A DNA stretch of 64,000 bases from Escherichia coli (GTDB lineage: Bacteria; Pseudomonadota; Gammaproteobacteria; Enterobacterales; Enterobacteriaceae): NCBI RefSeq assembly GCF_003018255.1, contig NZ_CP027440.1; one strand, written 5' to 3'. Numbering within the stretch: position 1 is the stretch's first letter; each line of letters starts with the position of its first letter. The notes under the pieces were generated by a model. It saw only the letters and a list, made by a program, of their open reading frames with translations. It was not told the origin of the DNA and searched no databases. This document shows, piece by piece, positions 11,549-53,067 of this stretch. The position numbers and the translations under genes were made by a program.

Positions 11549-13684
11549 TTACTCGCCCTGTTCAGCAGCCGGAGCTTCCGGTGCTGCAGCAGGTTGAGAC
11601 TGCTCAGTCGCTTCTTTAATGCTCAGACGGATACGGCCCTGGCGATCAACTTCCAGAACTTTCACCGGTACTTCCTGACCCATCTGCAGGTAATCGGTCA
11701 CTTTCTCAACGCGTTTGTCAGCGATCTGAGAGATGTGTACCAGACCTTCTTTACCGCCGCCGATGGCAACAAATGCGCCAAAGTCAACGATACGGGTCAC
11801 TTTACCATTGTAGACGCGGCCCACTTCGATTTCTGCAGTGATCTCTTCGATACGACGAATAGCATGTTTCGCTTTCTCGCCGTCGGTCGCTGCGATTTTC
11901 ACAGTACCGTCATCTTCGATTTCGATGGTGGTGCCAGTTTCTTCGGTCAGAGCACGGATAACAGAACCGCCTTTACCGATAACGTCTTTGATCTTGTCCG
12001 GGTTGATCTTGATGGTATGGATACGCGGAGCGAACTCAGAGATATCGCCGCGCGGCGCGTTGATCGCCTGTTCCATTACGCCCAGGATATGCAGACGCGC
12101 ACCTTTAGCCTGGTTCAGCGCAACCTGCATGATCTCTTTGGTGATACCTTCAATTTTGATATCCATCTGCAATGCAGAGATACCGTCACGGGAACCCGCA
12201 ACTTTGAAGTCCATATCGCCCAGGTGATCTTCGTCGCCCAAAATGTCAGACAGTACAACGTAGTTGTCGCCTTCTTTCACCAGACCCATTGCGATACCCG
12301 CAACGGCAGCTTTGATCGGCACACCTGCGTCCATCAGCGCCAGAGACGCGCCGCACACGGAAGCCATAGAAGAGGAACCGTTGGATTCGGTGATTTCAGA
12401 CACAACACGTACGGTATACGGGAATTTGTCCATATCCGGCATGACTGCCAGCACGCCGCGCTTCGCCAGACGACCGTGACCAATTTCACGACGCTTCGGA
12501 GAACCGACCATGCCGGTTTCGCCTACAGAGTACGGAGGGAAGTTGTAGTGGAACAGGAAGGTGTCAGTACGTTCGCCCATCAGTTCATCAAGAACCTGCG
12601 CGTCACGTGCAGTACCTAGCGTTGCGGTAACCAGCGCCTGAGTTTCACCACGGGTGAACAGCGCAGAACCGTGAGTACGCGGCAGCACACCAGTACGCAC
12701 ATCCAGACCACGGATCATATCTTTTTCACGACCGTCGATACGCGGTTCGCCTGCCAGTACGCGGCTACGAACAACATTTTTCTCGATAGCGTGCAGAATT
12801 TCACCCAGTTCGTTTTCGTCCAGGGTTTCGTCTTCAGCAAGCAGTGTCGCGATGGTTTCAGATTTGATGACATCAACCTGCGCATAACGCTCTTGTTTGT
12901 CGGTGATGCGGTAAGCATCGCTCAGACGAGCTTCAGCCAGTGCAGCAACGCGCGCGTTCAGCGCTTCGTTTACCGGCTCCGGCTGCCAGTCCCAACGCGG
13001 TTTACCGGCTTCTTTCACCAGTTCATTGATGTTCTGAATAACAACCTGCTGTTGTTCATGACCGAAGACTACTGCGCCCAGCATCTGGTCTTCGCTCAGC
13101 AGTTCAGCTTCAGATTCAACCATCAGTACAGCGGCTTCAGTACCCGCAACAACCAGATCCAGTTTGCTCTCTTTCAACTCGTCCTGAGTCGGGTTCAGTA
13201 CGTACTGGTCATTGATGTAACCTACACGGGCAGCACCAATCGGGCCATTGAACGGAATACCAGACAGAGACAGGGCTGCGGAAGCACCAATCATCGCGAC
13301 GATATCCGGGTTAACCTGCGGGTTAACAGAAACCACGGTGGCGATAACCTGAACTTCGTTGACGAAGCCTTCCGGGAACAGCGGGCGAATCGGGCGGTCA
13401 ATCAGACGCGCGATCAGGGTTTCGCCTTCGCTTGGGCGGCCTTCACGACGGAAGAAGCTACCCGGGATACGACCAGCAGCGTAGGTACGCTCCTGATAGT
13501 TAACGGTCAGCGGGAAGAAGTCCTGACCTGGTTTGGCTTTTTTCTGACCAACAACGGTAACGAATACCGCAGTGTCATCCATGCTAACCATAACAGCGGC
13601 AGTAGCCTGACGAGCCATCATGCCGGTTTCCAGAGTCACGGTGTGTTGGCCGTACTGGAATTTACGAACGATCGGATTAAGCAA
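11549..13684 (-). CDS. pnp: Polynucleotide phosphorylase (PNPase)
   Basis: Track ORF 11549..13771 trimmed to TTG at 13684 (recognised N-terminus [16 protein letters not shown]...), 711 aa; RNase PH, KH and S1 domains. Confidence 0.95.
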
Positions 13685-13724
13685 TGTAATATCCTTTCTC
13701 TTTCTTAGACAGTACCTTACGGCA

Positions 13725-13915
13725 CTGGTGTTAATACCCGATCTTCTGCGCATCCTCGCGACTAATGACAACCCTAACCCAGCTCTATGTGGGTAAAGCC
13801 TCTCATTAGCCGCGCGAACCTCTGCAGCGGAAGATCATTCATAGCAACAATACATTAGTTTCCAGTGAATTGCTGCCGTCAGCTTGAAAAAAGGGGCCAC
13901 TCAGGCCCCCTTTTC
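13725..13915 (+). ncRNA. sraG: Possible SraG (PsrO) sRNA antisense to the pnp leader
   Basis: Recalled location of SraG in the rpsO-pnp intergenic region on the opposite strand; plus-strand hairpin ggggccactcaggcccc + TTTT at 13893..13914 would give its 3' end; 5' end not determined. Confidence 0.3.
13886..13914. terminator. Bidirectional hairpin terminator (rpsO terminator)
   Basis: aaaaaaggggccactcaggcccccttttct: GC stem flanked by A-run and T-run. Confidence 0.75.
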
Positions 13916-13930
13916 TGAAACTCGCAAGAA

Positions 13931-14296
<366 letters not shown>

Positions 14297-15740: not shown

Positions 15741-15771
15741 TTAATTTCAGGTGGAAGGGCTGTTCACGTTG

Positions 15772-15845
15772 GCCTGATAAGACGCGCCAGCGTCGCATCA
15801 GGCAATCCATGCCGGATGCGGCGTAAACGCCTTATCCCGCATGGA
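15772..15845. repeat. REP/BIME element
   Basis: gcctgataagacgcgccagcgtcgcatcaggc and gccggatgcggcgtaaacgccttatcccgc match the REP consensus. Confidence 0.65.
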
Positions 15846-20522: not shown

Positions 20523-20545
20523 GCCCACCCCCAAGACATAAAAAA

Positions 20546-20608
20546 AGGGCCTAAAGCCCAGTTATTCTGTAGTCAGATAACAAAAAACCCCGATAAATCG
20601 GGGCTTTA
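20546..20608 (-). terminator. Two tandem hairpin/U-run structures between metY and rimP
   Basis: Minus strand gggctttaggccc + U-run and agccccgatttatcggggtttttt. Confidence 0.5.
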
Positions 20609-20728
20609 TATAACTGAACCCTATAACCGCAACTGCGGTCTGGAGCACTTTCCAGAAGGATTTTTTCAAATCCCACTACGAAGGCCGAAGTCTTCACAGT
20701 ATATTTGAAAAAGGACTCTAAGGGAAAG

Positions 20729-20805
<77 letters not shown>

Positions 20806-24585: not shown

Positions 24586-24672
24586 TGGTACCGAGGACGG
24601 GACTTGAACCCGTAAGCCCTATTGGGCACTACCACCTCAAGGTAGCGTGTCTACCAATTCCACCACCTCGGC
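24586..24672 (-). tRNA. leuU: tRNA-Leu (GAG)
   Basis: Reverse complement is GCCGAGGTGGTGGAATTGGTAGACACGCTACCTTGAGGTGGTAGTGCCCAATAGGGCTTACGGGTTCAAGTCCCGTCCTCGGTACCA: long variable arm, CCA end. Confidence 0.93.
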
Positions 24673-31321: not shown

Positions 31322-31358
31322 GCAAAAAAATACCGACCCGGGTACAAGTCCCAGGTCA
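31322..31358 (-). promoter_or_regulatory. graL: Leader terminator in greA 5' region (GraL-type attenuator)
   Basis: Minus strand: imperfect stem ACCUGGG/CCCGGGU followed by a U7 run, about 100 nt upstream of the greA ATG; coordinates approximate. Confidence 0.4.
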
Positions 31359-31476
31359 GCTACAATTCACATTTTGATAGTCATTTTACCCTGAAGTTCC
31401 CGAAGGGTCATCGTTTACTTTATAGGGCGTTGCGCCGTAGTATGACGGCTCGATTCCAGGTTGTTAGCGCGAGATT

Positions 31477-52946: not shown

Positions 52947-53067
52947 GTGCGGCCTGAAAAACAGTGCTGTGCCCTTGTAACTCATCATAATAATTTACGG
53001 CGCAGCCAAGATTTCCCTGGTGTTGGCGCAGTATTCGCGCACCCCGGTCTAGCCGGGGTCATTTTTT
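52947..53067 (+). ncRNA. arcZ: ArcZ (SraH/RyhA) sRNA
   Basis: Sequence matches recalled ArcZ: gtgcggcctgaaaaacagtgctgtgccc...acggcgcagccaagatttccctggtgttggcgcagtattcgcgcaccccggtctagccggggtcatttttt; terminator hairpin plus T6 overlaps the arcB stop on the opposite strand; 5' end approximate. Confidence 0.75.

Follow-up and report, generated by a model that had tools for sequence, protein, structure and literature searches.

Organization of the rpsO-pnp Spacer

The window, by which we mean the whole 64,000-nt stretch of DNA analyzed, is Escherichia coli chromosome, and the region of interest is the short spacer between the genes for ribosomal protein S15 (rpsO) and polynucleotide phosphorylase (PNPase; pnp) (table 1). 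Of 5426 complete E. coli genomes, 5425 contain a 401-bp query spanning positions 13600-14000; the matched region carries pnp and rpsO annotations, and many of the matches are 100% identical. The pnp gene of strain MG1655 (3309033..3311168) maps to window positions 11549..13684 (offset 3297484). The initial annotation had delimited a 246-bp rpsO-pnp spacer at 13685-13930, and these coordinates are exact according to both the ORFs and the MG1655 annotation. The ORF listing starts pnp at an upstream in-frame TTG (13771), which we rejected as an artefact of mechanical extension; the MG1655 annotation of the gene ends at 13684.

Table 1. Features of the rpsO-pnp control region in window coordinates
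Feature	Position	Strand	Remarks
pnp CDS (polynucleotide phosphorylase)	11549..13684	-	TTG start at 13684-13682
pnp translation initiation region	13682..13697	-	Shine-Dalgarno AAAGGA 13697-13692, TTG start 13684-13682
rpsO-pnp intergenic spacer	13685..13930	.	246 bp; flanks: pnp TTG start (13684) and rpsO stop codon (13931-13933)
SraG promoter -10 region (TGTAATAT)	13685..13692	+	hexamer positioned from the sequence and the mapped start
SraG primary transcript, 216 nt, cis-antisense to the pnp 5' UTR	13699..13914	+	mapped from MG1655 sraG (b4449)
Second small pnp leader hairpin (CAGUGCC-GUAA-GGUACUG)	13710..13727	-	in both MFE and centroid folds
pnp leader hairpin R (RNase III processing site triggering PNPase autoregulation)	13740..13836	-	inverted repeats I1 and I4; cleavage from PMC5029454
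Rfam RF00082 (SraG) match	13743..13914	+	162.4 bits, E = 1.4e-29, full model (1-177 of 177)
13827 allele	13827..13827	.	G in window, A in MG1655; sole mismatch in 13650-13960
Approximate pnp P2 start	13839..13842	-	placed from RNA lengths, RNase III sites, and hairpin geometry
Bidirectional intrinsic terminator	13887..13916	.	A6, GGGGCC, ACTCA, GGCCCC, CTTTTCT
rpsO CDS (ribosomal protein S15)	13931..14200	-	stop codon TAA at 13933-13931

Across positions 13650-13960, the window and MG1655 differ at a single site. On the pnp strand, the G at 13827 converts a U.G wobble of the lower stem of hairpin R to a C-G pair, and on the SraG strand, it converts a C/A mismatch to a C-G pair. The window allele matches many E. 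coli strains at 100% identity, hence it is common.

The level of PNPase, a major exoribonuclease, is under tight control. Within 246 bp, the spacer holds a terminator, a promoter, an RNase III switch, CsrA sites, and an antisense RNA. It is very probably the rpsO-pnp control region of E. coli, in which both strands are read, that is, the sraG locus of strain K-12. This locus is already known from the literature and the K-12 RefSeq annotation, and our analysis adds no new biology; only the strand asymmetry and the patchy conservation of a promoter described below are new. Sequence identity, folds, terminator anatomy, the Rfam match, and conservation were computed here. For transcription, transcript ends, RNase III cleavage, and repression, we rely on published experiments, in which the sequence studied differs from that of the window by one base.

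For comparisons across species, a collection of species-representative genomes was scanned with a 15-mer from the leader hairpin (CGCGACTAATGACAA), yielding 120 loci. In 67 of them, tblastn placed rpsO and the pnp start on either side of the match, and these represent 66 distinct spacers. The set includes Escherichia, Citrobacter, Enterobacter, Klebsiella, Serratia, Yersinia, Rahnella, Dickeya, Erwinia, Pantoea, Tatumella, Morganella, and Arsenophonus; three further loci are from Vibrionaceae. Roughly one-third of the 120 matches, from Planctomycetes, Bacteroidales, and other groups, had neither rpsO nor pnp by tblastn and were discarded as chance matches to the 15-mer.

A Terminator Shared by Convergent Transcripts

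On the plus strand, the terminator consists of an A6 run (13887-13892), a GGGGCC stem arm (13893-13898), an ACTCA loop, a GGCCCC stem arm (13904-13909), and a C-TTTT-C-T tract (13910-13916). Read on the minus strand it is rpsO T1, with tail UUUUUU, and read on the plus strand it is the terminator of SraG, with tail CUUUUCU; the better U tract is therefore that of the minus strand. Predicted folding energies are -15.7 kcal/mol (+) and -22.8 kcal/mol (-). The suggestion in the initial annotation that a GC hairpin between an A-run and a T-run could terminate transcription on both strands agrees with the tracts on both flanks of this hairpin and with Fontaine et al. 2016 (PMC5029454, Fig. 1 legend), which calls rpsO T1 and the SraG terminator one bidirectional terminator. 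In that study, the major SraG 3' ends are at the terminator, and a few 3' ends on its SraG side reflect read-through.

Shuffling of such a short piece is a weak test, and gave z-scores of only -1.95 (+) and -2.63 (-) for the hairpin. Conservation provides stronger evidence that the hairpin is not a product of chance, because 66 of the 67 rpsO-pnp spacers, which come from other species, retain a GC core flanked by A-rich and T-rich tracts. The two flanks are not conserved alike. The A run, which encodes the U tract of rpsO, is nearly invariant (GAAAAAAG in most spacers), and the T tract of the plus strand is shorter, with interruptions (CCTTTTC, CTCTTTC, CTTTCTAC, and CTTTACAC). A terminator scan reported a site on the plus strand alone. 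We rejected the missing minus-strand call as evidence against T1 and regard it as an artefact of the scan: on this strand the A run pairs with the T run, and the tail test fails since the T tail has become part of the stem. The element resembles other bidirectional terminators of convergent transcripts in that one GC hairpin is preceded by an A tract and followed by a T tract, but here the two directions are unequal, with an uninterrupted U6 on the rpsO side and CUUUUCU on the SraG side.

Spacing around the terminator varies among lineages. In Erwinia, Pantoea, and Tatumella, 85-88 nt separate the hairpin from the stop codon of rpsO, versus 20-23 nt in most other Enterobacterales, an extra 65 nt (loci L016, L032, L042, L048, L049, L054, L056, L064, L071, L083, L094, L099, L103, L106, and L109). 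Three Enterobacteriaceae, Enterobacter sp. BIGb0383, Kluyvera genomosp. 1, and a Pseudocitrobacter MAG (L013, L060, and L066; spacers of 346-353 nt), carry an insertion of ∼100 nt between the leader hairpin and the terminator. A search for the GC-core hairpin in the long spacer of locus L105 (398 nt) did not find it.

The SraG Transcript and Its Promoter

In MG1655, RefSeq annotates sraG (b4449) between pnp and rpsO and on the strand opposite both. Its coordinates, 3311183..3311398 (+), correspond to window positions 13699-13914, with 215 of 216 bases identical. The window copy is thus like that of K-12 in locus, strand, and ends, matches the SraG model (RF00082) over its full length, and differs by one base, G rather than A at 13827; no other difference was found. 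The mapped ends also fit the sequence, as the start falls on a T (13699) and the 3' end on the final T of the TTTT run (13914). The 216-nt RNA is predicted to fold with an MFE of -66.6 kcal/mol (z = -4.06), and the fold includes a mirror image of the pnp leader hairpin.

SraG is the only Rfam 15 family matched in the spacer, on the strand opposite the leader, and no pnp leader family was matched there. On the minus strand the SraG model scores 22.7 bits, which is below the cut-off, and a scan at permissive thresholds returned, besides SraG, chance-level matches alone. The match begins 44 nt inside the primary transcript (13743 vs. 13699) because the model follows an older 174-nt annotation, in which the 5' end was 42 nt further in, at 13741. 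An annotation made from Rfam alone will set the SraG 5' end 44 nt too far downstream and therefore omit most of the 42-nt 5' segment involved in repression.

Experiments in strains MG1655 and N3433 detected SraG RNAs of ∼215 and ∼190 nt by Northern blot (PMC5029454). Circular RT-PCR combined with polyphosphatase treatment identified the primary RNA of 216 nt, whose 5' end lies 42 nt upstream of the one annotated in 2001, and the processed forms of ∼190 nt lack ∼30 nt from one end or the other (PMC5029454). SraG is poorly expressed and its levels respond to temperature and the stringent response (PMC5029454). In Salmonella, SraG is among the cis-antisense RNAs associated with ProQ (PMC5391140). 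The initial annotation had placed an antisense sRNA, SraG, in this spacer, proposed an Rfam scan, and could not fix the ends of the RNA from sequence. Its presence is borne out by the Rfam match at 13743-13914 (+), which at 162.4 bits compares with a curated cut-off of 50 bits, by the RefSeq sraG annotation, and by near-identity to MG1655, whose annotation also supplies the ends, 13699 and 13914. The claim would fall if there were no plus-strand transcript, and that transcript has been detected in K-12 by Northern blot and circular RT-PCR (PMC5029454). We also considered, and set aside, a small protein encoded in SraG; only one plus-strand ORF of at least 40 aa reaches into the spacer (13620-13796, 58 aa), and it begins within pnp, upstream of where SraG starts.

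The best candidate -10 hexamer, TAATAT at 13687-13692, ends 7 nt before the start at 13699, and the -10 region sits between the Shine-Dalgarno sequence and the start codon of pnp on the opposite strand. A mutation of the -10 element abolishes the 216-nt RNA (PMC5029454). A scan for consensus promoters found neither the SraG promoter, with no sigma-70 site on the plus strand, nor pnp P2, and we attribute this to both being weak or noncanonical.

Conservation of the SraG promoter is patchy. Among the 66 distinct sequences, the hexamer aligned to the SraG -10 is exactly TAATAT in 19, and the A at -11 and T at -7 are both kept in 29. Lineages that keep TAATAT include Escherichia, Citrobacter, Yersinia, Rahnella, Morganella, and others. 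Elsewhere, the hexamer is TTCTGT (Enterobacter cloacae), TTCTAT (a Klebsiella MAG), or CAAAGT (Pantoea stewartii). The site is also constrained, on the other strand, by the ribosome-binding region of pnp. On these alignments, selection for SraG itself would be demonstrated at most in a subset of lineages.

The pnp Leader

The work summarized in PMC5029454 describes a long leader hairpin that is cut by RNase III at two staggered sites, leading to PNPase-dependent decay and to translational repression by CsrA. The placement of an autoregulated pnp leader in the spacer by the initial annotation is consistent with this study, which locates the RNase III-cleaved leader there. The leader in the window (13842-13670, -) has a predicted folding energy of -63.1 kcal/mol (z = -4.69 relative to shuffled sequences). 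Compared with the E. coli autoregulatory hairpin (Portier 1987, Jarrige 2001, and Carzaniga 2009, cited in PMC5029454), the window has the same sequence and the same predicted hairpin, with the 13827 allele as the sole difference.

The start of P2 was bracketed using data in PMC5029454, namely RNase III sites at +39 and +77 and an in vitro pnp RNA that ends at nucleotide 79 of the ORF and is given as either 234 or 237 nt, so that these inputs are not fully consistent. The bracket would also be the upstream limit of the duplex between SraG and the P2 transcript of pnp, predicted to be ∼141-144 bp.

Across Enterobacterales, the core of the leader hairpin is invariant, and compensatory changes are found in its outer and apical pairs. 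RNAalifold recovered hairpin R from 51 pnp-sense species sequences as a structure of 27 pairs, of which the core does not vary and 7 have changed on both sides; the invariance of one arm is by construction, as it contains the 15-mer used as search seed, but that of the other arm is not. The second small hairpin shows several types of compensatory pair per position (for example, 13726/13711 is AT in 23, GC in 8, and CG in 8).

Conservation Is Asymmetric between Strands

The two strands of the hairpin can be distinguished: a G.U wobble on one strand is an A/C mismatch on the other. Over 37 pairs in 66 distinct sequences, the pnp strand has 319 G.U cells and the SraG strand 36. The structure was derived on the pnp strand, and a recount was therefore restricted to the 39 pairs of the long and second small hairpins that are Watson-Crick in the window, which avoids this source of bias. 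The counts are then 167 for pnp versus 45 for SraG, with 22 pairs favoring pnp and two favoring SraG (sign test, P = 3.6e-5, not corrected for phylogeny). In 65 of 66 sequences, the hairpin segment is also more stable as pnp RNA than as SraG, with mean energies of -47.5 versus -31.2 kcal/mol. We therefore conclude that the structure is maintained for the pnp leader and that SraG inherits a weaker mirror image of it.

This has consequences for the meaning of a match to the SraG model. What is conserved in the Rfam family amounts to the pnp leader hairpin and rpsO terminator in reverse complement, therefore a match alone is no proof of transcription. The model scored 79-162 bits in all 17 Enterobacterales loci tested, opposite the S15 leader and whatever the state of the promoter. 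Judged by these comparisons, a match to the SraG model indicates that the signals of pnp and rpsO are present, not that an antisense RNA is made. When an antisense RNA mirrors a structured leader, a covariance-model match is evidence neither of antisense transcription nor of selection. In three Vibrionaceae loci (L041, L074, and L120), the model scored below the cut-off. Some Vibrionaceae (L041, L080, and L120; Enterovibrio and Grimontia) have the 15-mer together with a GAGCC/GGCTC terminator in their rpsO-pnp spacer, and in L074 (Enterovibrio) the 15-mer is near rpsO. The presence of the 15-mer in spacers where the model falls below its cut-off implies that the core of the leader hairpin is older than the range of the Rfam family.

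Predicted Action of SraG on pnp

On the minus strand, rpsO transcripts would end at T1 (13909-13893, tail UUUUUU), and transcripts that read through, as well as those initiated at the internal promoter P2, would carry the pnp leader. Hairpin R (13836-13740) would then be cut by RNase III and the remaining duplex removed by PNPase, exposing the message to decay and to CsrA. On the plus strand, a weak promoter lying over the pnp ribosome-binding region is predicted to start SraG at 13699, and the same terminator hairpin, read the other way, would end it at 13914. The resulting 216-nt RNA would be perfectly complementary to ∼140 nt of the pnp mRNA initiated at P2 and to the whole spacer portion of the read-through rpsO-pnp mRNA. 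Pairing is predicted to block 30S binding and to create new RNase III cuts, leaving slightly less pnp mRNA and PNPase.

Elements of this model come from work on K-12 (PMC5029454). By sequence, the SraG 5' end pairs up to position -15 relative to the TTG, and the published account has this pairing near the Shine-Dalgarno sequence without overlapping it. Full-length SraG abolishes the 30S toe-print on pnp RNA, but the toe-print persists with a form that is missing the first 42 nt. RNase III makes new cuts in the SraG-pnp duplex, and it cuts SraG alone at mirror-image sites because SraG forms the same hairpin. Mutation of the SraG -10 raises pnp mRNA and PNPase ∼1.3-fold, and overexpression of SraG (∼30-fold) lowers both, with an effect of at most ∼2-fold. 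The regulatory effect of SraG on pnp is small. SraG is like other cis-antisense RNAs processed with RNase III, such as GadY (gadX-gadW; discussed in PMC5029454) and AsflhD (flhD), in its perfect complementarity to a 5' UTR or intergenic part of an mRNA, in cleavage of the duplex by RNase III, and in modest, fine-tuning effects. SraG differs in that its target gene encodes an RNase and already has RNase III-dependent autoregulation, and in mirroring the RNase III hairpin of its target, such that SraG alone is an RNase III substrate.

Alternative Explanations

One alternative is that there is no sRNA here, that the plus strand is silent, and that the Rfam match and hairpins reflect minus-strand signals only. 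The conserved content of the family is indeed the reverse complement of minus-strand elements, and the consensus scan found no sigma-70 promoter on the plus strand, but plus-strand RNAs of 216 and ∼190 nt were detected in MG1655 and N3433 and were lost in the -10 mutant (PMC5029454). As the window is identical to MG1655 from promoter to terminator except at 13827, and as the published Northern blots and circular RT-PCR refute a silent strand for K-12 (PMC5029454), we regard this explanation as extremely improbable. A second reading accepts the RNA and makes it mainly trans-acting, with Hfq or ProQ, on distant mRNAs, which would make the overlap with pnp a secondary matter. The affinity of purified Hfq for SraG is sub-nanomolar (PMC5029454), association with ProQ is reported in Salmonella (PMC5391140), and SraG of Yersinia pseudotuberculosis is reported to repress the YPK_1206-1205 operon (PMC5029454). 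However, the Yersinia targets have no homologues outside that genus (PMC5029454), and no E. coli target other than pnp emerged from target prediction, microarrays, pulse labelling, or Northern blots of ten candidates (PMC5029454). Deletion of hfq also changes neither the level of SraG nor its effect on pnp-lacZ (PMC5029454). A mainly trans-acting role is thus improbable in E. coli, and regulation of pnp in cis is preferred.

More weight should be given to the idea that the plus-strand RNA is real but mainly a by-product of an AT-rich ribosome-binding region and a symmetric terminator, contributing little to fitness. All that the SraG family conserves would then be kept for the sake of rpsO termination and the pnp leader. 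The hairpin asymmetry is strongly towards the pnp strand, the -10 hexamer is patchy (exact in 19 of 66) relative to the terminator core (66 of 67), and the Rfam model matches 17 of 17 Enterobacterales loci irrespective of promoter. Poor expression, a 1.3-fold effect, and the lack of a phenotype upon overexpression (PMC5029454) are consistent with it as well. But the promoter mutation alters levels of pnp mRNA and PNPase, the first 42 nt of SraG are specifically required for repression, and SraG levels depend on temperature and the stringent response (PMC5029454). An older autoregulation mutant maps to the same -10 element (PMC5029454), and the plus-strand T-rich tract, though short, is kept in most species. 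We therefore consider the by-product explanation unlikely for E. coli, and favor a functional cis-antisense RNA of small effect. For Enterobacterales as a whole, the comparative data allow a tentative and still rather doubtful proposal: the SraG family may be mostly a mirror of the pnp leader hairpin and rpsO terminator, with a functional promoter in some lineages only, and SraG may have been recruited recently or sporadically instead of being ancient.

Other Rfam Matches in the Window

The Rfam scan also matched other elements in the window. The ribosomal S15 leader (RF00114; 14144-14258, -; 117.6 bits) covers the rpsO 5' UTR and start and is the expected S15 autoregulatory element. A rimP leader, two tRNAs, a greA leader, and the ArcZ sRNA scored above the cut-off (20540-20640, 20732-20805, 24589-24672, and 31325-31446 on the minus strand and 52947-53054 on the plus strand) and fit the nusA-infB region of E. 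coli and its neighborhood. A match to naRNA4 (CssrE) in the infB-rbfA spacer (15771-15841, -; 77.2 bits) is probably a REP-type element, and naRNA4 matches were also found in E. albertii (L003) and E. coli E69 (L097).
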